This document shows positions 15,304-53,762 of a DNA stretch of 64,000 nucleotides, piece after piece. The notes below the pieces were generated by a model, which did no database searches, had not been told where the DNA came from, and saw nothing but the letters and a program-made list of their open reading frames with translations. The translations under genes and the position numbers were made by a program. This DNA comes from a bacterium (GTDB lineage Bacteria; Patescibacteriota; Patescibacteriia; Patescibacteriales; JAKAJF01): NCBI GenBank assembly GCA_021788015.1, contig JAJYLD010000005.1, forward strand, positions 349 to 64,348, read 5' to 3'. Position 1 is the stretch's first letter, and every line of letters begins with the position of its first letter.

Positions 15304-15452
15304 AACGCTTCGCTAGGAGTTACTTTCTTGTAACCAAGAAAGTAACCAAAGAAGTTTCGGGGGCTCCAATTCGCTATCACATTGATTTATCTTTAAACTC
15401 TCTTGCTCTGACGCTCAATTTCGCCCCCAAACCCCATTGGTGTTTTGAATAC
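15304..15452. repeat. Family B repeat, copy 1 (about 150 nt)
   Basis: The first ~80 nt (aacgcttcgctaggagttactttcttgtaaccaagaaagtaacc...gggggctccaattcgc) are identical to 34465-34544. The remainder is similar but diverged. Confidence 0.8.
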
Positions 15453-24225: not shown

Positions 24226-24501
24226 ATGAAAATTACAAAAAAAGTGCAGGAAAAATATTTTAAAGCCATTCTTGAAGGCGAGAAAACATACGAAGTCCGT
24301 TTGGCGGATTTTGAATGCAAGCCGGGCGATGTTCTTGTTTTGCTTGAACAAAAAGACGGAACCCGGGAATTGACGGGAAGGAAAATGGAATGCGAAATTT
24401 CCATGGTTTTCAATACGAAAGATATGGAAAAATTTCACAGCAAAAATGAAATCGAAAAGTATGGATTATTGGTTATGGCCATAAAAAAGAAAGAAATATG
24501 A
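24226..24501 (+). CDS. ASCH/DUF3850-like PUA-fold protein
   Basis: KYFKAILEGEKTYEVRLADF...GD.L.L is typical of ASCH/DUF3850. The stop TGA lies in the ATGA at 24498-24501. Confidence 0.6.
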   Translation: MKITKKVQEKYFKAILEGEKTYEVRLADFECKPGDVLVLLEQKDGTRELTGRKMECEISMVFNTKDMEKFHSKNEIEKYGLLVMAIKKKEI

Positions 24502-24623
24502 ATCCCGTTAGAAGCCGCAATCGCTTTCGGCGGAGAATAAATAAAACGGAGTTTAAAAAATTGTAATTTACGCGGATGTGCAATCAAATATTCTTGATCG
24601 CGATCTGCTTCTAACGGGATGAA
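24498..24623 (+). repeat. Family A start-codon hairpin element, copy 1
   Basis: ATGAA+TCCCGTTAGAAGCCGCAATCGC ... GATCGCGATCTGCTTCTAACGGGATGAA. Perfect 14-bp IR at 24502-15/24607-20. The terminal AT is part of ATG 24619. Confidence 0.9.
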
Positions 24624-34464: not shown

Positions 34465-34611
34465 AACGCTTCGCTAGGAGTTACTTTCTTGTAACCAAGA
34501 AAGTAACCAAAGAAGTTTCGGGGGCTCCAATTCGCTATAACATTGATTAGAATTTTCGTCTCTCACCCTGGCGCTCAATTCCGCCCCCGAACCCTATTAG
34601 TGTTCTGAATA
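34465..34611. repeat. Family B repeat, copy 2
   Basis: The first ~80 nt are identical to 15304-15383. It directly abuts the right REP hairpin. Confidence 0.8.
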
Positions 34612-38493: not shown

Positions 38494-39198
38494 ATTTATA
38501 AATTAAAAAGACCCCATGCATATTTGAGTAGCTTTGTATTTTTTAAACTGTTTGGTTTTTTATCTTTTCTGAAAAATCTTTTTACCAATTATAAAAATTT
38601 CTCCGGTATCGATTTCGTCTCAAGACGCTTCGTTCGGGTCTCTCCGCGGAGGGTCGTTTTTTTAGACATCTGCCTGTCGGCAGGCGGGAAGAACCAAAAA
38701 GTCGCTCGCTTGAGAAAATTAAGGAATTTTTCGTTTTCGCTCGGGACGATTTCAAACTAGCTACACACAAACAGTGAAATCTTTTTTCTTCGCTTTCGGT
38801 AAAAAATTCCACTAAATTTTCTATGCTCGCATGGCTTGCATTTCTGGAAATTTTGCGTTAAAATAATAATAAATAAAGAGGCGAGAATTAGCGAAAAAAA
38901 ATAACTAATTTAAGCCTAAATAAGCCAGAACCCATCTCAAAAATAATCTCTAGCTCTTTTTCAGTCTTTTTCGGTTGCAAAATCCAAAAATCTCGTCGAA
39001 ATAGCTTAAATTATTACTCCTCAATTTTTGTATTTTTCCCTCGAAAAATCCTTGAAAAAGACTAAAAGCTATTTTCGAGACAGGTTTTAATAAAAATTGC
39101 TGATTATATGCATTTTTTATTTATTTTAGCGGGCAGTCCGGTCGACGAATAAAAAACCCATTAATCTACAAACAATAAAAAATATAACTTTAATTTTT

Positions 39199-39324
39199 AT
39201 GTATCCCGTTAGAAGCCGCGATCGCTTCGACAGGAAAAACATAAACAAGCAAAAAATCTAATTAATTATATTACACAGATCGAAATCAATATTCTTGATC
39301 GCGATCTGATTCTAATGGGATGTA
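39199..39324 (+). repeat. Family A start-codon hairpin element, copy 2
   Basis: ATGTA+TCCCGTTAGAAGCCGCGATCGC ... GATCGCGATCTGATTCTAATGGGATGTA. The terminal ATG is the start of 39320. Confidence 0.9.
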
Positions 39325-39999: not shown

Positions 40000-40106
40000 A
40001 TTAATCCCGTTAGATATCCTGATTATTCAAATGTAAATCGGTATGCCTGATGGGATCGTAAAAAAATTTTTATGTCAACAAAACAACAAATATCTAACGG
40101 GATGAA
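40000..40106 (+). repeat. Family A element, divergent short copy 3
   Basis: Perfect 14-bp IR ATCCCGTTAGATAT (40004-17) / ATATCTAACGGGAT (40090-103). The terminal ATG at 40102 starts a signal peptide. Confidence 0.8.
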
Positions 40107-44721: not shown

Positions 44722-45711
44722 ATGAAAAAAATCGTATTTTTGGGCCTGGCTTCGGTTTTTCTTGTAACCGGCTGCAGTTTAAAATCAAACGCGAATGCCG
44801 TCAAAACAATTACTCCCGATGAAGCGAAAATAAAAGCGGAAAATTATATCAACGCCAACTTGATGACCGGCGGAAACAAGGTCGCGATCAAAGACATTGC
44901 GGAAGAAGAGGGACTATATAAAATTGATGTAGTTTTGCCGAATGGTCAATCAATAACTTCTTACTTAACCGAAGATGGAACAAAATTTTTCCCGCAAGCT
45001 TTGGATACGAATCAAAACCTGAATACGCAAAATAATAATGCCCAGAGCGACAATGCCGCGCCGCAACAGCAGTCGATCCCGAAAACTGATAGGCCTAATG
45101 TGGAATTATTCGTCATGGCCTATTGTCCTTACGGCACCCAAATGGAAAAGGGAATTTTGCCGGTCGTCGATGCTTTAAAAAACAAAATCAATTTTGAAAT
45201 TAAATTCTGCGATTATTCCATGCACGGAGAAGGAGAAATTAACGAAGAATTAAGACAGGTTTGTATAAAAAAAGACGCCCCGGACAAATACGAGACTTAT
45301 TTGAAATGTTTTTTGAAGGCGGGAGCGGACCAATCCGATCAGTGCTTAAAGACGGCCGGGATCGATAAAAATAAAATCGATTCATGCTCGGCTCAGGTCG
45401 ACAAACAATATCAGGTCAAAGCGAAATTCGCGGACAAGAGCCGATGGCCGAACGGGAGCTTCCCTCCTTTTGACGTTTATAAAGCCGATAATGAAAAGTA
45501 CGGAGTGCAAGGTTCGCCCACTTTGGTCATCAATGGCGTCCAGGCGAATACCAATCGCGATTCGGAAAGCTTGTTAAAAACGATTTGTTCGGCCTTTACA
45601 AAAGAACCGGCCGAATGTAAAACAACTTTACCAAGCGTCACCCCCTCTACGGGTTTCGGAGACGGCAATGCGACCGATTCGGGGTCGGGGGCCAATTGCG
45701 CGACCAATTAA
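44722..45711 (+). CDS. Lipoprotein with thioredoxin-fold-like domain
   Basis: Lipobox LVTGC after MKKIVFLGLASVF. CPYG motif in FVMAYCPYGTQ. ATG 44692 is also possible. Confidence 0.55.
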   Translation: MKKIVFLGLASVFLVTGCSLKSNANAVKTITPDEAKIKAENYINANLMTGGNKVAIKDIAEEEGLYKIDVVLPNGQSITSYLTEDGTKFFPQALDTNQNLNTQNNNAQSDNAAPQQQSIPKTDRPNVELFVMAYCPYGTQMEKGILPVVDALKNKINFEIKFCDYSMHGEGEINEELRQVCIKKDAPDKYETYLKCFLKAGADQSDQCLKTAGIDKNKIDSCSAQVDKQYQVKAKFADKSRWPNGSFPPFDVYKADNEKYGVQGSPTLVINGVQANTNRDSESLLKTICSAFTKEPAECKTTLPSVTPSTGFGDGNATDSGSGANCATN

Positions 45712-45713
45712 AC

Positions 45714-45955
45714 ACGAATCCCGTTAGGAGCAGCGATCGTTTTTTACGGGAGCGGACAAAAACATAGAATAAAAAACCATAATTTACGCAAATGCGCAAT
45801 TTAAGATTTTGATCGCGATCCCGATACCGCAAATCCTATCGGATTCGGCCACGGGACAAGTTCTGCCGCGCAAAACTTATTATTAACCACGTCTCGCCCC
45901 CGTAGTCACCGAATTTACGAGGTGCACTACAGGGGTCTGCTTTTAACGGAATGAA
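45714..45955 (+). repeat. Family A element, long copy 4, with an extra ~117-nt structured module (45821-45937)
   Basis: The 5' arm is aatcccgttaggagcagcgatcg. The module is ATCCCGATACC...CCCCGTAGTCACCgaatttacgaGGTGcACTACaGGGGTC. The 3' arm TGCTTTTAACGGAATGAA ends in ATG 45951. Confidence 0.85.
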
Positions 45956-46325
45956 TAAAAAATATAAAGTCCTTGTTGTCGAAGATGACGATCTCATCAG
46001 TTCGATGTACAAAATCAAATTTGAAAACGAAGGGTTCGAAGTAACCGTTGCCGGAAACGGCGCCGAGGGATTGGATAACGCCAAAAAGGGAGACTTTGAT
46101 TTAATTCTTCTGGATGTAATTTTGCCGCAATTGGACGGATTTTCGATTTTGTCGGAAATAAAAAAGGACAAAAAAGCGAAAGACATACCCGTAATCATGC
46201 TGACCAATCTCGGAACGGACGAAGATATTCAGAAGGGGAAAAATTTGGGAGCGATTGACTATATAATCAAATCGAGCTTTACGCCTTCGCAAGTGAGCGA
46301 GAAAATTAAGACTTACTTAAAGTAA
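45951..46325 (+). CDS. Receiver-only response regulator (CheY-like)
   Basis: VEDD, the phospho-acceptor D in LILLDVILP, and T/K motifs (MLTNLG, IIKS). Confidence 0.9.
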   Translation: MNKKYKVLVVEDDDLISSMYKIKFENEGFEVTVAGNGAEGLDNAKKGDFDLILLDVILPQLDGFSILSEIKKDKKAKDIPVIMLTNLGTDEDIQKGKNLGAIDYIIKSSFTPSQVSEKIKTYLK

Positions 46326-48219: not shown

Positions 48220-48474
48220 ATGCTACCGATAGGAAAGCCGATCGATCTGGACAATATCATGGGGATGCTTAGAAAGGGCCGAGCTGTTGTGGTTGCCAAA
48301 GTCTTCGAGAACGACTCTTCATGGTTCGAAGTTTGTTCCAAAGAGGTTACCACCCTTAAGGGCATAACTCAAGCTTTGGCTTCAGCCGGAAAGAAATATT
48401 CCGAGACCCAGATTTTCGTAATCGGGAACTACGGAAAAACAGAGAAGCGTAAGCCTGAAACGGAAAAGATTTAA
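48220..48474 (+). CDS. Hypothetical protein (84 aa), related to the C-terminus of 47605-48210
   Basis: GGGGGAG SD. Pattern L.KG..V.V.K......F.........L...L.......E..IFV..N.GK..KRKP is shared with the upstream protein. Confidence 0.5.
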   Translation: MLPIGKPIDLDNIMGMLRKGRAVVVAKVFENDSSWFEVCSKEVTTLKGITQALASAGKKYSETQIFVIGNYGKTEKRKPETEKI

Positions 48475-48521
48475 TCTTTTCCTCTTTTTTCAAATCACAA
48501 AATTATATATATAAATAAGAT

Positions 48522-48648
48522 ATGAATCCCGTTAGAAGCCGCGATCGCTTTTAGGGGGAGTCAAAAAACAAAAATAAAAAAATAAATAATTTTAAAATAT
48601 CATGCAGATCAAAAATTTTTGATCGCGATCTGCTTCTAACGGGATGAA
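48522..48648 (+). repeat. Family A start-codon hairpin element, copy 5
   Basis: ATGAA+TCCCGTTAGAAGCCGCGATCGC ... GATCGCGATCTGCTTCTAACGGGATGAA. The terminal ATG 48644 opens the Ile-rich leader ORF. Confidence 0.9.
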
Positions 48649-48721
48649 TTTATTTCAAAGCGCGAAAATTATTTCGATTATTGAGATCATCATTATTGAT
48701 GACCATTTTTGCGCGCTTTGA
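48644..48721 (+). promoter_or_regulatory. Ile-rich leader peptide ORF (25 codons, 8 Ile)
   Basis: MNLFQSAKIISIIEIIIIDDHFCAL. The stop lies inside the candidate antiterminator strand 48714-48726. Confidence 0.7.
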
Positions 48722-48747
48722 AGACGAAAACATAAAAATAAAAGGAG

Positions 48748-48775
48748 CCGTCTTCGAAGCGAGAAGACGGTTTTT
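48748..48775 (+). terminator. Attenuator terminator upstream of cimA
   Basis: CCGTCTTC gaagcga GAAGACGG plus TTTTT. The 5' arm can alternatively pair 13 bp with 48714-48726. Confidence 0.75.
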
Positions 48776-48824
48776 GTATGGATCTTTCAAAACAAAATCG
48801 TTAGAAGATAAAGGAGAACATGAG

Positions 48825-50396
48825 ATGACCGAAATTTATGACACGACTCTTAGGGACGGGGCGCAGACTGAAAATATTTCTTTTTCAGTCCGGGATAAAC
48901 TGAAAATCGCTTGGCGTCTTAAGGAATTCGGCATTCCTTTTGTCGAAGGCGGTTGGCCGAGCGCGAATCCGAAAGACACGGAATTTTTCCAAAAAGCGGT
49001 CGCAACGGATTTAAAAGATGTTTTAGTCGCGTTTGGGAGCACTTTTCATCCGAAGTCGAGAAACGCCGGCGACGACAAGGGGTTGAAAGCTTTGATTCTG
49101 AGTGGAGCGAAGGCGGTTGCAATTTTCGGAAAGACATGGGATTTTCACGTCAGCGACGCTTTGAGAATACCGCTTGAGGAAAATCTTAGAATCATTTTCG
49201 AGTCGGTGAAGTTTTTAAAAAGCCGGCTTGAAAAAGTTTTCTTCGACGCCGAGCATTTCTTCGATGGCTATAAAGCGAATCCGGGATATGCGCTGGAATG
49301 TCTCAAGGCCGCGGAACGGGCGGGAGCGGACACGATCATTCTTTGCGATACCAACGGCGGCGCCCTTCCGGCTGAAGTCGAATCCGTTTTTCGAGACATA
49401 AAGAGAGTCGGCGTTTCGGTCGCTTTGGGCATTCACGCCCATAACGACTGCGAGTTGGCGGTTGCCAATTCTTTGGCCGCGGTAAAAGCCGGCGCCATCC
49501 AGGTGCAAGGCACCATCAACGGTCTCGGAGAAAGGTGCGGTAACGCGAATCTCGTTTCGATAATCCCCACGCTTGAACTCAAACTCGGTGAAAAATGCCT
49601 GCCGCCCGAGAAATTGAACGAACTTCGCGAAACCTCCCTTTTTATAAGTGAAGTTGCCAATGTCGCGCATTCAAAAAGGCAAGCTTATGTCGGTGACAGC
49701 GCCTTTGCGCATAAGGCGGGAATGCATGTAAGCGCGGTGAATCGCAACCCCGAAACTTACGAGCATATTAATCCCGCTTCGGTCGGCAACAAGCGCAGAA
49801 TACTCGTCTCGGATTTATCCGGTAGAAGCAATATCTTGCGCAAGGCCGGAGAAATCGGGATGAAATTGGAGGAAAAATCTCCGCGCGTGCAAGCGATTCT
49901 CGATGAAATCAAGTCGCTGGAAAACCAGGGTTACGCGTTTGAGGCGGCGGACGCTTCTTTCGAGCTTTTGGTCAAAAAAGCGTTTGGCTTTTATCAACCT
50001 TTCTTCGAACTCGTCAGCTCCAGGATCGTTAATTCAAAGAACGGCGGACTTTCCCGGAATGAAGCGACAGTAATGCTTCGAGTCGGGGAGCGCGAGGAGC
50101 ATACCGCCGGAAAAGGAGACGGCCCTATCAATGCCGTTGACGAGGCGTTAAGAAAAGCTCTCGAACGTTATTACCCGATTCTCAAAAAGGTCAGACTCGT
50201 AGACTATAAAGTCACCGTGCTTTCCGAAATTGAAGGCACGTCGGCAAAGGTTCGAGTTTTGATAGAATCGGAAAGCGACGGAGAAAGATGGACCACAATC
50301 GGCGTTTCCACCGATGTCATCGAAGCGTCCCGCCAGGCCTTGATCGACGGAATAGAATATTTTCTTCTTAAAAAAGATGTGAAAGCCCTAATTTAA
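48825..50396 (+). CDS. cimA: Citramalate synthase-like (LeuA/CimA family with C-terminal regulatory domain)
   Basis: IYDTTLRDGAQTENISFSVRDKL.IA..L.EFG..FVEGGWPSANPKD.EFF matches the CimA-type N-terminus as recalled. AAGGAG 8 nt before ATG 48825. Confidence 0.65.
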   Translation: MTEIYDTTLRDGAQTENISFSVRDKLKIAWRLKEFGIPFVEGGWPSANPKDTEFFQKAVATDLKDVLVAFGSTFHPKSRNAGDDKGLKALILSGAKAVAIFGKTWDFHVSDALRIPLEENLRIIFESVKFLKSRLEKVFFDAEHFFDGYKANPGYALECLKAAERAGADTIILCDTNGGALPAEVESVFRDIKRVGVSVALGIHAHNDCELAVANSLAAVKAGAIQVQGTINGLGERCGNANLVSIIPTLELKLGEKCLPPEKLNELRETSLFISEVANVAHSKRQAYVGDSAFAHKAGMHVSAVNRNPETYEHINPASVGNKRRILVSDLSGRSNILRKAGEIGMKLEEKSPRVQAILDEIKSLENQGYAFEAADASFELLVKKAFGFYQPFFELVSSRIVNSKNGGLSRNEATVMLRVGEREEHTAGKGDGPINAVDEALRKALERYYPILKKVRLVDYKVTVLSEIEGTSAKVRVLIESESDGERWTTIGVSTDVIEASRQALIDGIEYFLLKKDVKALI

Positions 50397-50418
50397 TTAG
50401 GGCTTGTTTTTTTTCGCA
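50383..50418 (+). terminator. Terminator after cimA
   Basis: AAGCCCTAATT ta ATTAGGGCTT plus T-run. The stop codon lies inside the stem. Confidence 0.75.
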
Positions 50419-50440: not shown

Positions 50441-50521
50441 ATGAGACAAGCCGCACAAAATTTACTACTCGCTTTGTTGCTTTTATCGCCTCGTCGGGTG
50501 GCTTGTTTTCATGCGTTTTAA
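50441..50521 (+). promoter_or_regulatory. Leu-rich leader peptide ORF (26 codons, 7 Leu)
   Basis: MRQAAQNLLLALLLLSPRRVACFHAF, using TTA CTA CTC .. TTG TTG CTT TTA. Confidence 0.65.
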
Positions 50522-50548
50522 GAAAATAGATAAAAATAAAACAGCAAG

Positions 50549-50570
50549 ACCGCCCCAAAAGGCGGTTTTT
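50549..50570 (+). terminator. Attenuator terminator upstream of leuA
   Basis: ACCGCC ccaaaa GGCGGT plus TTTT, 48 nt before ATG 50618. Confidence 0.65.
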
Positions 50571-50617: not shown

Positions 50618-52225
50618 ATGAATAATTTGATTTTGAACGACGTATCTTTGCGGGAGTCCGGTCAGGTCGAGGGAGGAATGATGAATCCCTCGGATCAAAT
50701 TCGGTATGTTCAGTATCTGCTCGAAGGAGGAATAAATCGAATAGAGATCGGTTTTCCGGGAAGTTCGGAAGAGCAGAAAAGGCAGTGCCAAAGAATAGCG
50801 GAACATGTTCACAAATGGGATGGTACAAAACCGAATCTTTCCGGATTGGCCAGGGCGCACAAAAATGACATCCTGGCGGTCAAAGAAGCGGGCTGCGATA
50901 TGTGCCATATTTACATTCCGGCAAGCGACGAGTTGATGTTGGCCCAATTTCACGCGGAGAAATACGGAACCACAAAAGACGAGAAGCGGAAGCGCATCAC
51001 CGAGACTGCAAAAGAGGCGATCGTTTTTGCCAAATCTCTCGGATTCGCCCATATCGAATATTCTCCGGAAGACGCGGCAAGGGCCGGCAAAGAATTTTTA
51101 AGCTTTCTAGTCCAAGAAGTCGTTGAAGTGGGAGCGGATATCGTAAACATTCCGGACACCACGGGGCTGCGTATCGGCTCGGAATTCGGCGACCTCATCG
51201 CCTATCTCTTCGCCAATGTGGCCGACATAAACAGATCCACGATTTCGGTCCATTGCCATAATGATAGCGATCACTCGACCCATAACGCTCTTCAAGCCGT
51301 TCTGGCGGGAGCAAGACAAGTCGAAGGAGCCTTTTACGGACTGGGAGAACGCAGTGGAATGACAAAATTCGAAGCCCTGCTGATGAACATAAACACAAGA
51401 AGAGATATTTTTAAAAACGTTGAAACAGATTTCGACAAAAGTGTTTGCGTTAAGATCGTCAATTTCGTGGGGCAAGTCTTGGGCATGCCGGTTCCCAGAC
51501 ATTGGGTTGTGGCGGGATCCCAGAATGGCATTGTCAGTTCTGGAACGCATCAGGCGATCGAAGCGCGGGCGGAAGAGCAGGGAAAGGAAAGTCCGTATTA
51601 CAGCTGGAACCCCGGTGAGTACGGGCACAAAGGGGTCGAAGTGGTCGTAACTCAATCTTCGGGTAAGGCCGGTTTGAAAAAAAGACTCGAAAAACTTGGC
51701 TATAATGTTTCCGATATTCAACTCGCAAAAATAAGCGAGCGAGTAAAACAAATTTCGGAAGCAAAATCCGGCACGGCTCTCAAAGATGTCGAGCTTACCG
51801 CCATCGTCCAAGAAGCGATAACGGAAATTCCTTTCCCCATTATGATTAAAAGATGCCAAACCACGGGTGGAAAAGGAACGATCCCGAGCGCGACGGTTGT
51901 TCTCGAAGCGGACAGTCGAATATTTACCGATATCGCCACCGGAGACGGACCTTTCGACGCCGTTATGAAGGCGGTGAAAAGCGCGATCGGAAAAGCGTAT
52001 CCGGAAGTTAAAGAAGCGCAAATTTCTCTTGTCCATTGGCACGCCTCTGCGTTAACTCCGGGCACTAATGCGGTAGCCGACGCTTACGCCCAGATCAAGG
52101 TTGTAAACGGAGGAGATCGAATTTTCTCCGGGAAAGGCGCCGATCCCGACACTATTCAGGCTTCGGCGCAAGCCTTCGCCAATTGTTTCAGTTGGTATCT
52201 GGCCTCCATCAATCAAGCGGATTAA
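50618..52225 (+). CDS. leuA: 2-isopropylmalate synthase-like (LeuA family)
   Basis: DVSLRESGQ (DRE-TIM), HCHNDSDH, C-terminal LeuA dimer/regulatory-like domain. AAGGAGGG SD. Confidence 0.6.
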   Translation: MNNLILNDVSLRESGQVEGGMMNPSDQIRYVQYLLEGGINRIEIGFPGSSEEQKRQCQRIAEHVHKWDGTKPNLSGLARAHKNDILAVKEAGCDMCHIYIPASDELMLAQFHAEKYGTTKDEKRKRITETAKEAIVFAKSLGFAHIEYSPEDAARAGKEFLSFLVQEVVEVGADIVNIPDTTGLRIGSEFGDLIAYLFANVADINRSTISVHCHNDSDHSTHNALQAVLAGARQVEGAFYGLGERSGMTKFEALLMNINTRRDIFKNVETDFDKSVCVKIVNFVGQVLGMPVPRHWVVAGSQNGIVSSGTHQAIEARAEEQGKESPYYSWNPGEYGHKGVEVVVTQSSGKAGLKKRLEKLGYNVSDIQLAKISERVKQISEAKSGTALKDVELTAIVQEAITEIPFPIMIKRCQTTGGKGTIPSATVVLEADSRIFTDIATGDGPFDAVMKAVKSAIGKAYPEVKEAQISLVHWHASALTPGTNAVADAYAQIKVVNGGDRIFSGKGADPDTIQASAQAFANCFSWYLASINQAD

Positions 52226-52240: not shown

Positions 52241-52483
52241 TTTTTCATTTCAAAAACTTGCAATTTTGCATGCATATGCTATAATTATCCACATATGATA
52301 AGTAAAACAACGCAAAAAATTCATTTCTGGTTTAGATTTAGCTACTTCTTTAGCTCTGATCGGAGATCGGTTTTTTGTGGTGTTTTATATAGGTAGTAAA
52401 ACTCACAAGGGAAAACGAAACTGGCTCCGATCAAAAATCGGAGCCAGTTTTTAAATGTGATCATTTGAAAAAGGAGGGCAGTA

Positions 52484-52880: not shown

Positions 52881-52911
52881 TTTTTTAATATTTGTTAGAA
52901 TGTAAGCAGAT

Positions 52912-53115
52912 ATGAATCCCGTTAGAAGCCGCGATCGCTTCAACGGGAGTAAAAATTAAAATATAATATTCGCAGAGTGATCCCGATACCACCAATCCTA
53001 TCGGATTTGGCTATGGGACAAGTCCATTGCAAGTAATTTATTATTAATTACGCCTCGCCCCGTAGTCACCGAGTTTACGAGGTGCACTACCGGGGTCTGC
53101 TTCTAACGGGATGAA
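52912..53115 (+). repeat. Family A element, long copy 6, with the structured module (52982-53097)
   Basis: ATGAA+TCCCGTTAGAAGCCGCGATCGC; the module is homologous to 45821-45937; the 3' arm is TGCTTCTAACGGGATGAA. The terminal ATG 53111 opens a 26-codon ORF. Confidence 0.9.
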
Positions 53116-53191
53116 AAGATACTGTGCACAAATGAATAATAACAATAATAACTGGCTCAAGACCGGTTTCTTTTCATGTGTTAAAAAGTAA
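53111..53191 (+). promoter_or_regulatory. Candidate leader peptide with six consecutive Asn codons
   Basis: MKRYCAQMNNNNNNWLKTGFFSCVKK. GACCGGTT (53161-68) inside the ORF is the exact complement of the terminator 5' arm AACCGGTC (53214-21). Confidence 0.4.
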
Positions 53192-53213
53192 GTTAAAAAA
53201 TCACATAAAAAAG

Positions 53214-53242
53214 AACCGGTCGGGCAAAAGGCCGGTTTTTTT
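53214..53242 (+). terminator. Terminator-like hairpin between the Asn-run ORF and the 57-aa gene
   Basis: AACCGGTC gggcaaaa GGCCGGTT plus T7. Confidence 0.6.
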
Positions 53243-53302: not shown

Positions 53303-53476
53303 ATGACGGTAAGAACAGTTAAAGTCAGGGACGAGTTAACCGGACAGAAGGTAGTGGCCAGTATTGAAGAAGTGGGCGGAAGGAGACTTTTGGTTCTGCC
53401 CGGACTTAGGAAAGTGGAACAGCCATTTCCTCCGAAAGAGGAGCCAGCTAAACCGGAAGACGAGCCAAGCAACTAG
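53303..53476 (+). CDS. 57-aa protein (hypothetical)
   Basis: AAAGGAGGG SD 4 nt before the ATG. Terminator GGCAAGCaaaaacaGCTTGCC plus T-run at 53476-53506. Confidence 0.5.
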   Translation: MTVRTVKVRDELTGQKVVASIEEVGGRRLLVLPGLRKVEQPFPPKEEPAKPEDEPSN

Positions 53477-53581: not shown

Positions 53582-53762
53582 CGGAGTATAGTATAAGTGG
53601 CAGTACGCGCCCGCTTGCTCCGTTACTCAATTACCGGGGTGTAGTATAACGGTAGTACGCGAGCATGGGGTGCTTGTAGCCGGGGTTCAATTCCCCGCAC
53701 CCCGAAAGATGAGTAACGGGGTGAAGGCGGGGGTAGTTCCGGTTCGATTCCGGATACTCCGA
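53582..53762 (+). ncRNA. tRNA-shaped outer gene whose anticodon arm is replaced by a long helix carrying an embedded tRNA-Pro
   Basis: Acceptor CGGAGTA/TACTCCG plus A73. D arm GTAT-AAGTGGCA-GTAC. T arm TCCGG-TTCGATT-CCGGA. Helix CCGTTACTCA (53620-29)/TGAGTAACGG (53710-19) is extendable to about 15 bp and stacks on CCCGC/GCGGG. No 7-nt anticodon loop. Confidence 0.5.
53635..53705 (+). tRNA. tRNA-Pro (anticodon GGG), CCA not encoded
   Basis: Manual cloverleaf: CGGGGTG TA GTAT AACGGTA GTAC G CGAGC AT-GGG-GT GCTTG TAGC CGGGG TTCAATT CCCCG CACCCCG A. C1:G72, A73 and G37 fit Pro identity. Confidence 0.85.

Follow-up and report, generated by a model that had tools for sequence, protein, structure and literature searches.

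A candidate isoleucine leader-peptide attenuator upstream of the cimA (citramalate synthase) gene of a Patescibacteria genome

In Escherichia coli and Salmonella, the trp, leu, thr, ilvGMEDA, ilvBN, his and pheA attenuators combine a leader peptide rich in cognate codons with the alternative pairings 1:2, 2:3 and 3:4 of four RNA segments, a leader stop codon in or near segment 2, and an intrinsic terminator ahead of the first structural gene. A leader for branched-chain amino acids in Corynebacterium glutamicum, the IlvL peptide MTIIRLVVVTARRLP of ilvBNC, is translated with no ribosome-binding site; the +1 position of its transcript is one nucleotide from the start codon, and its RNA is modelled as three hairpins, an anti-antiterminator, an antiterminator and a terminator (PMC11857589). 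Another branched-chain leader from outside the Proteobacteria, the leucine-rich attenuator peptide of the Staphylococcus aureus ilv-leu operon, is reported to work jointly with CodY on a large operon (PMC5794164). The locus analyzed here lies in a stretch of 64,000 nucleotides (nt), hereafter called the window, on contig JAJYLD010000005.1 of a Patescibacteria genome (assembly GCA_021788015.1). A short, isoleucine-rich open reading frame (ORF), hereafter called the Ile leader, and a predicted terminator are found there directly upstream of a citramalate synthase gene, cimA. The sequence of this unit makes it likely that cimA is controlled by a ribosome-mediated, Ile-specific transcription attenuator.

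The leader ORF, the four segments, the position of the stop codon and the terminator are the same as in the E. coli and Salmonella attenuators. The Ile unit differs from those attenuators in falling below the Rfam cutoff, in its specificity for Ile only rather than for Ile, Val and Leu together, and in the lack of a Shine-Dalgarno sequence; the proposed target is a single cimA gene and not an ilv or thr operon, and the host belongs to the Patescibacteria. With C. glutamicum ilvBNC it shares a branched-chain amino acid leader that has no ribosome-binding site and the three hairpins, and the Val and Leu leaders of related genomes, in which a -10 box is located 6 nt before the ATG, resemble the ilvBNC leader as well. 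The phylum is different, as are the Ile-only leader, the controlled gene (cimA rather than ilvBNC) and a 122-nt palindromic element that separates the putative promoter in the window from the leader start. The S. aureus peptide has its counterpart in the Leu leaders that precede a LeuA-like gene in the window and in relatives. By contrast, each unit described here is a module with one gene and an amino-acid specificity of its own. Judged by its layout, the Ile unit is the same in function as the enterobacterial and corynebacterial leaders, and by sequence it is in no curated family.

The Ile leader, its alternative folds and cimA

An Ile leader-peptide attenuator had been proposed at this locus in an earlier note made from the DNA sequence alone, and the individual parts that were claimed there could be located again. 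The leader ORF at 48644-48721 encodes MNLFQSAKIISIIEIIIIDDHFCAL, with eight Ile among 25 codons. Its TGA (48719-21) lies, as described, inside CGCTTTGAAGACG (48714-26), and this strand can pair over 13 bp, one of them G-U, with CGTCTTCGAAGCG (48749-61) in a helix computed at -19.4 kcal/mol. The terminator arms CCGTCTTC (48748-55) and GAAGACGG (48763-70) are followed by T5 (48771-75), AAGGAG (48811-16) and the cimA ATG (48825) are present, and the leader ATG is indeed the terminal ATG of a repeat copy, at 48521-48648. The suggested pair of antiterminator and terminator was also retained, as part of a larger design: folding added a fourth element that the note had overlooked, a 1:2 helix between UUCAAAGCGCG(AAAA) at 48654-68 and (UUUU.)CGCGCUUUGAA at 48707-22, which is present in the minimum free energy (MFE) fold and in the centroid fold. 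The label of the downstream gene as citramalate synthase-like agrees with a match to TIGR00977 far above the cutoff, and the attenuator reading as a whole is in keeping with the layout of the four RNA segments, with where the Ile codons and the stop fall relative to them, and with the enzyme encoded downstream.

The alternation of the 1:2, 2:3 and 3:4 helices is the complete four-segment logic of a trp-type attenuator. When the energies of the competing folds were compared, the leader-only fold with 1:2 had -23.4 kcal/mol, 2:3 had -19.4 kcal/mol, and 3:4 had between -12 and -18.1 kcal/mol; the bare 8-bp stem accounts for -12 to -13 kcal/mol of this range and the stem with its A/U-tract extension for -18.1 kcal/mol. 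The terminator itself (48748-75) is composed of an 8-bp stem with five G-C pairs, a 7-nt loop and U5. The leader is specific for Ile only, with a run of four Ile included, and its Ile codons extend as far as 48697, which is 10 nt ahead of segment 2. A ribosome covers about 13 nt on the 3' side of its A-site. With this footprint, a ribosome modelled on the last Ile codon led to the antiterminator fold, in which seven of the eight terminator-arm bases were paired.

AT-rich spacers commonly contain ATT-rich stretches of low complexity, and the mini-ORF might on that account be a chance ORF in an ATT/ATC-repetitive spacer beside an ordinary terminator or stabilizing hairpin, with no regulation involved. 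Shuffles that preserved dinucleotide composition were used to estimate how often the features arise in this way, with the terminator arm held fixed for the antiterminator and the ATG held fixed for the ORF. The antiterminator energy was matched in 3 of 5000 shuffles, an ORF with at least eight Ile was seen in 7 of 5000, and the leader-only fold energy (-23.4 versus a shuffle mean of -13.9) was matched in 1 of 1000, so that three independent features are each rare at preserved composition. A loose scan, which asked only for an amino-acid run in a mini-ORF and a terminator after it, returned 57 background matches in 0.93 Mb, some of them antisense within genes. Because of this background the combination of ORF and terminator is a weak criterion by itself, and the weight rests on the combination of features. 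When about 0.9 Mb of Candidate Phyla Radiation (CPR) loci were examined for further leaders of the Ile or Asn type, the candidates on contigs L102 and L148 were antisense within coding genes and were rejected as background. The gene upstream of the Ile unit (48220-48474) has its own terminator (48462-90), and the hairpin at 48748-75 is therefore not merely the terminator of that gene; no minus-strand gene requires it either. The hairpin is situated between a promoter-like site and a gene with its own Shine-Dalgarno sequence, and its geometry agrees with that of 14 other leaders described below. A chance origin is accordingly given very little weight.

A search of the entire window with the Rfam models at their gathering thresholds, and of 48400-48850 and 45650-46000 at E <= 10, assigned no known RNA to the leader. 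No T-box or riboswitch was matched in 48400-48850 even at E <= 10, and the only leader family to appear in that interval was Thr_leader (RF00506), with 13.2 bits against a cutoff of 55 and E = 8.5. These results bear on the possibility that a factor acting in trans, such as a tRNA at a T-box, a riboswitch ligand or an RNA-binding protein, drives the attenuator and that the mini-ORF is incidental. Alternation between a terminator and an antiterminator is common to all these mechanisms, but no Rfam family rose above noise, and a trans-acting factor would leave unexplained why the ORF is enriched in Ile, why its stop codon falls inside segment 2 and why, across the clade, the amino acid of a leader matches the enzyme. 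Such a factor is highly improbable as the main driver.

The downstream gene is, by its profile matches, a citramalate synthase of the TIGR00977 type. Its product scores 714.7 bits against this NCBIfam model (cutoff 450) over residues 3-519 of 523, and contains the Pfam domains PF00682, PF22617 and PF08502. The public gene call for CimA (P0001, 48699-50396, 565 amino acids) is 42 amino acids too long, as it begins within the leader and reads across the terminator. Since both the family alignment and the Shine-Dalgarno sequence place the start at 48825, the N-terminal extension of P0001 is an annotation artefact, and the call conceals the attenuator and misstates the N-terminus of CimA. From about 48487 to 50414, a putative promoter, the leader, the attenuator and the gene form a self-contained module (Table 1). 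The GC content of the cimA module is 49.6%, versus 49.4% for the native LeuA-like gene, and composition thus bears no mark of foreign origin.

Table 1 Features of the cimA module, related leader units and copies of the palindromic element. Positions without a prefix refer to the window; the prefixes L204 to L212 denote loci of related genomes.
Feature	Position	Strand	Details
Putative promoter	48487..48515	+	TTTTCA (48487-92), 17-nt spacer, TATAAA (48510-15); read from sequence
Palindromic element copy at the leader	48522..48643	+	Hairpin of -38.5 kcal/mol, z -5.2
Ile leader ORF	48644..48721	+	MNLFQSAKIISIIEIIIIDDHFCAL and TGA stop, no Shine-Dalgarno sequence; ORF listing and direct reading
Segment 1	48654..48668	+	Anti-antiterminator 5' strand, UUCAAAGCGCGAAAA; MFE and centroid folds
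Regulatory Ile cluster	48668..48697	+	Codons 9-18, II-S-II-E-IIII; ATT x5 and ATC x3
Segment 2	48707..48726	+	Shared strand including the stop codon, partner is segment 1 or 3; folding
Segment 3	48748..48761	+	Terminator 5' arm and loop bases, also 3' strand of the 13-bp antiterminator
Segment 4	48763..48775	+	GAAGACGG and U5 tract of the intrinsic terminator
Shine-Dalgarno sequence of cimA	48811..48816	+	AAGGAG, 8 nt to ATG 48825
Citramalate synthase gene cimA	48825..50396	+	523 amino acids, C-terminal LeuA_dimer regulatory domain; profile matches
Terminator of cimA	50383..50414	+	Closes the promoter-leader-cimA module
Leu leader, window	50441-50521	+	MRQAAQNLLLALLLLSPRRVACFHAF; alternative GTG start 50432
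Leu unit, window	50441..50570	+	Antiterminator 50496-507 / 50543-55, terminator 50550-70
Leu unit, L204	L204:1683-1812		Leader MKTAKQKNLSLNLLLLLPKRVAVFHA
Leu unit, L205	L205:2043-2197		Leader MNLAQTKNLTLNLSLLLLALLLLLPFGVAKLSLL
Leu unit, L206	L206:4837-4957		Leader MLIKLTVKLFNLLLLLPLRRVAVFS
Leu unit, L208	L208:4674-4808		Leader ...FLNLLLLLPLRRVAVFT
Leu unit, L210	L210:3281-3415		Leader MKTVVFKQLLLSLLLLLFPARTADFLIIN
Leu unit, L211	L211:3827-3948		Leader MKKVYVKNLLLGLLLLFTSGLVFV
Leu unit, L212	L212:3791-3914		Leader MKHYTAQNLLALLLLVEEGFCVG
Val/Ile leader units	L206:9783-9902, L208:10724-10844		TTGACA-17-TAGAAT-6-ATG, apparently leaderless
Aromatic leader unit, window	52295-52452		ORF 52295-52396, terminator 52421-52
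Aromatic leader units, relatives	L211:5733-5873, L204:3634-3784
Clear copies of the palindromic element	24497-24623, 39198-39324, 45713-45955, 48521-48648, 52911-53115		Five copies; a divergent copy ends at 40101

Leaders in related genomes

The product of the LeuA-like gene that follows cimA (50618-52225) groups with about 50 proteins in a clade at 46-61% identity, next-best matches being at most 35% identical, and the named sources of this clade are almost all Patescibacteria or Parcubacteria. Seven distinct relatives were fetched for comparison (L204, L205, L206/L207, L208/L209, L210, L211 and L212). Three of the seven share the gene order of the window, namely a response regulator, NDK, small genes and the LeuA-like gene, and in L206 and L208 the order continues with a fused LeuCD, LeuB and a ThrC-like pyridoxal phosphate (PLP) enzyme with a LeuA_dimer domain. 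A Leu-rich mini-ORF and a terminator precede the LeuA-like gene in all eight loci, the window and the seven relatives. The Leu codons vary synonymously among genomes (alignment A2), which is what selection on translation predicts. The consensus structure obtained with RNAalifold was the antiterminator, GGGUGGC/GCCACCC, and not the terminator; two of its seven pairs show compensatory double changes, and GGGUGGC lies within the Leu-leader ORF and pairs with the 5' arm of the terminator.

Two further kinds of leader were found in the clade. A Val/Ile leader, M(T/I)(E/K)KLPK(I/N)LDIVVVVSLIIPT, lies ahead of the ThrC-like gene in L206 and L208 and has a clear 1:2, 2:3 and 3:4 layout with segment 1 at codons 4-6; the gene under its presumed control encodes a PLP enzyme that resembles threonine synthase and has a LeuA_dimer regulatory domain fused to it. 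The Val leaders of L206 and L208 and the Leu leaders of L211 and L212 are preceded by a canonical TTGACA-17-TA..AT promoter with exactly 6 nt to the leader ATG, and because the promoter ends so close to the ATG these four look leaderless. An aromatic leader rich in Phe, Tyr and Trp (MI.K..QK..F.FWFFFF...VFCGVL), with an antiterminator and a terminator, is present as homologous copies in L204, the window and L211. The L204 copy (MIK..QK..F.FWFFFF...) precedes a DAHP synthase gene (NCBIfam 410 bits, cutoff 335). Only small ORFs come next after the copies in the window and L211 (52484-52639 and 52617-52793).

Fifteen leader units were folded with a ribosome modelled on the last regulatory codon, using the RNA before the 3' arm of the terminator. 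In every one of them, bases at the 3' end of the leader ORF paired with at least part of the terminator 5' arm, although in L211 this involved one base only. The regulatory codons fall within codons 8-24 across the 15 units (9-18 in the Ile leader), and the distance from stop to terminator is 24-39 nt (26 nt in the Ile leader). In the Leu, Val/Ile and aromatic leaders of the clade, as in the Ile leader, the 3' end of the ORF supplies the antiterminator strand, and it is succeeded by an A-rich spacer of 24-39 nt and then by a short GC stem with U4-U8 behind it. They are unlike it in that the pairing of Ile with cimA occurs in one genome only, and the Ile leader has no detectable sequence homology to them; for the Val leaders in particular, no convincing alignment with the Ile leader was obtained. 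Because leaders of the host clade share this geometry, at eight of eight loci for Leu, at two for Val/Ile and at three for the aromatic leader, they support the attenuator reading at cimA, and leader-peptide attenuation looks clade-wide rather than limited to the Ile/cimA locus.

The cimA gene itself is absent from all syntenic relatives compared (48491-50414 versus L204-L212). Only one near-identical CimA was found among 5.8 billion proteins, on the Logan contig L082, and exact and homology look-ups gave, besides the source contig (DAHWTJ010000004.1 of GCA_027328865.1), one identical Logan contig only. L083, the third member of the cluster, was considered as a further copy and rejected, as it is unrelated DNA. 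All other CimA homologues are at most 62% identical, and those with names were assigned to Nitrospirota or Thermodesulfovibrionales in the protein search, with relatives of Geobacter added from the genome loci. Conservation among cimA orthologues, which had been intended as a test of the attenuator, is not applicable in that role because the host's relatives have no cimA and the genomes that bear cimA belong to other phyla. The distribution suggests that cimA was acquired or that it is the one copy of the gene to have survived in this lineage.

The palindromic element and possible initiation at the Ile leader

The Ile leader begins at the edge of a palindromic element that is about 120 nt in length, with long variants of about 200-240 nt, and has almost invariant arms and a divergent interior. 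In the copy at the leader, a duplicated ATGAA (48522-26) and a T come first, the left arm CCCGTTAGAAGC (48528-39) and a second stem come next, and an AT-rich interior leads to the right arm GCTTCTAACGGG (48632-43). The ATGAA at 48522 duplicates the first five bases of the leader, and a 117-nt palindromic insert (the T and the element, 48527-48643) separates the two. In three copies in the window the terminal ATG is a true gene start, of an alpha/beta hydrolase (24619), a metallo-hydrolase (39320) and a response regulator (45951). An exact 17-mer search matched at least 120 metagenome contigs (L084-L203). Among the matches listed, about 105 contigs have the left arm 77-194 nt (mostly 105-135 nt) upstream of an ATG, and the genes that start at the element include those for ribosomal proteins (rpL22, rpS13), EF-G, LepA, aminoacyl-tRNA synthetases, SSB (four diverged orthologues), RuvC, MurG, RecR and MreB. 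Right ends that had not been selected by way of an ATG carried ATG in 18 cases and GTG in one; most of these 19 open long genes (S19-like, S4, ORFs of 604 and 681 amino acids), and a small number lead into short ORFs or another copy of the element. In all, more than 120 metagenome copies were counted whose right end falls exactly on a gene start. As operon-internal starts carry the element too, it tracks start codons and not transcription starts.

To the left of the element, 4-6 nt (mostly 5) copy the first bases of the gene, for example ATGGA/ATGGA, ATGCGA/ATGCGA and ATGCAA/ATGCAA, and the duplicated bases are followed by T in 99 of 99 copies. The second stem, behind a 4-nt bulge, covaries (A-T in 38 and G-C in 37 copies at one position). 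At stem position 20 there are 35 G-U versus 10 A-C combinations, a weak and not conclusive hint on whether the structure is RNA or DNA in nature. In 26 of 79 copies, a third, a TANNNT hexamer that would be a -10 box lies 6-7 nt ahead of the left ATG, versus about 3 at other offsets. An assignment of the repeat as an integron attC site was rejected because the GTT...AAC polarity is reversed. The element matched no Rfam family at the gathering threshold in the whole window or at E <= 10 in 45650-46000, and nothing on its arm sequence was found in the literature searched. It may be a MITE (a small transposable element with inverted repeats) that loops out, a processing site or something else.

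At the Ile leader, the putative TATAAA box is 6 nt away from the duplicated ATG at 48522. A promoter within the repeat that would fire at the terminal ATG was also considered and rejected, there being no acceptable -10 box at the right distance. Several observations weigh against a working attenuator here. The putative promoter is a moderate match to the consensus and fails a stricter consensus scan, the leader has no Shine-Dalgarno sequence, and its AUG is at the foot of a hairpin of -38.5 kcal/mol (z -5.2), which would hinder initiation in model bacteria. The U-tract of the terminator is short (U5). The leader region of L082 is identical, and the Ile leader is thus without an independent evolutionary replicate; moreover, no Ile-rich mini-ORF was present up to 450 nt upstream of cimA in the 78 distant loci scanned, from a set of 80 genome loci of Nitrospirota and Geobacter at 53-61% identity of which two with less than 250 nt upstream were omitted. 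Finally, leuCD, leuB and ilv genes, on which the conversion of citramalate to isoleucine would depend, are absent from the 64-kb window.

Some of these points would suit a disabled relic of a formerly leaderless Ile leader of the kind seen in relatives, in which insertion of the element at the start codon blocked translation of the leader. The 1:2 and 3:4 helices would then be the default fold, and the terminator would be constitutive or would depend on what governs the element. The element is located exactly between the predicted promoter and transcription start and the leader AUG and folds strongly, there is no Shine-Dalgarno sequence, and the Leu and Val leaders of relatives begin 6 nt after the -10 box with no insert. 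However, the three real genes noted above and over 100 housekeeping genes in metagenome contigs start at the same edge of the element, and because this edge precedes essential genes (rpL22, rpS13, EF-G, aminoacyl-tRNA synthetases, SSB) in many genomes, initiation there must work. Every part of the attenuator is also intact and far from random. It is a safe reading of these genomes that an AUG immediately 3' of the element serves as a working start codon in these organisms, and a relic appears unlikely, if somewhat less so than a chance ORF or a trans-acting factor.

Another mini-ORF that begins at a copy of the element, MKRYCAQMNNNNNNWLKTGFFSCVKK, has six consecutive Asn at codons 9-14 and belongs to a unit at 53111-53242. 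An antiterminator-like helix (53161-80 / 53202-21) overlaps its terminator (53216-42, U7) in a geometry like that of the other leaders. The only gene downstream is a 57-residue ORF (53303-53476) with a strong Shine-Dalgarno sequence, and no conserved counterpart of the unit at 53111-53242 was found. A second unit of element, mini-ORF and terminator without an obviously related biosynthetic gene after it would also be compatible with the Ile leader being a small gene in the first place, for a hydrophobic micropeptide or a small RNA that ends at 48775, with control of cimA secondary. Attenuator-derived small RNAs and peptides with functions in trans have been reported from Sinorhizobium. In the Ile leader, however, the hydrophobic stretch has only 10 residues and is interrupted by charge, the peptide sequence is conserved nowhere else, and attenuation fully explains the RNA design, so that little credence is given to a primary role as a small gene.

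A wider proposal, which is offered tentatively and is rather doubtful as a whole, is that the Ile leader is a piece of two undescribed features of the clade, a regulon-like set of attenuators and the start-codon palindromic element, and that the element is a module acting at the RNA level, where it may loop out, undergo cleavage at its 3' foot or be bypassed, and not a passive MITE. Translation would then begin at the edge of the element, as an extra layer of control atop the attenuator. Judging from the units compared, the set of attenuators may lack Shine-Dalgarno sequences, would probably be leaderless, and may comprise leaders for Leu at the LeuA-like gene, for Val/Ile at the ThrC-like gene, for Phe/Tyr/Trp at DAHP synthase, for Ile at an acquired cimA and perhaps for Asn.

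Two other features of the window were recorded. A tRNA-Pro(GGG) gene (53635-53705) lies between sequences that resemble the halves of another tRNA (53583-53761), with acceptor-like ends GGAGTAT...ATACTCC, a T-loop GGTTCGATTCC and a helix CCGTTACTC/GAGTAACGG that encloses the tRNA-Pro; within 53583-53761, ARAGORN with introns allowed and Rfam detected the inner tRNA-Pro only. An 84-nt direct repeat (15304-15387 and 34465-34548), 99% identical and 19 kb apart, is unrelated to the palindromic element.

Proposed control of cimA and its meaning

Under the attenuator reading, transcription would start upstream of 48644, probably near 48522 from the TATAAA box, and a ribosome would translate the 25-codon leader. 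When Ile-tRNA is plentiful, the ribosome would reach the UGA at 48719-21 and cover segment 2, the 3:4 helix would form and the polymerase would stop near 48775. When Ile-tRNA is scarce, a ribosome stalled on the Ile codons (48668-97) would mask or separate segment 1 and free segment 2, and the 13-bp 2:3 helix would then form in place of the terminator and allow cimA to be transcribed. If the leader were not translated, 1:2 would form and lead to termination. The sequence itself shows the ORF, the three alternative helices with their energies, the geometry, the enzyme family and the conserved equivalents in the clade; the promoter, the translation of the leader, the stalling and the premature termination in vivo are what we infer from it. 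It had been remarked in the earlier note that ribosome-mediated attenuation was not known in CPR genomes. This is in line with a literature search, itself incomplete, in which no paper joining leader peptide, attenuation and Patescibacteria was found, nor any paper on a cimA leader. As far as the searched literature shows, the attenuator proposed at cimA would be the first in its phylum.

The CPR, or Patescibacteria, are usually described as metabolically minimal scavengers, and to our knowledge almost nothing is known about gene regulation in these organisms. A working attenuator would imply tight coupling of transcription and translation and direct sensing of tRNA charging in Patescibacteria. 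The Leu, Val/Ile and aromatic leaders across the clade suggest that the mechanism is used repeatedly, and in these reduced bacteria amino-acid synthesis is probably adjusted through the sensing of tRNA charging. If the attenuator reading is correct, a host-style leader on a cimA that has no close relative in the host lineage would represent regulatory domestication or an attenuator that arose de novo. The palindromic element at start codons could, in addition, raise the question of how translation is initiated in these bacteria.

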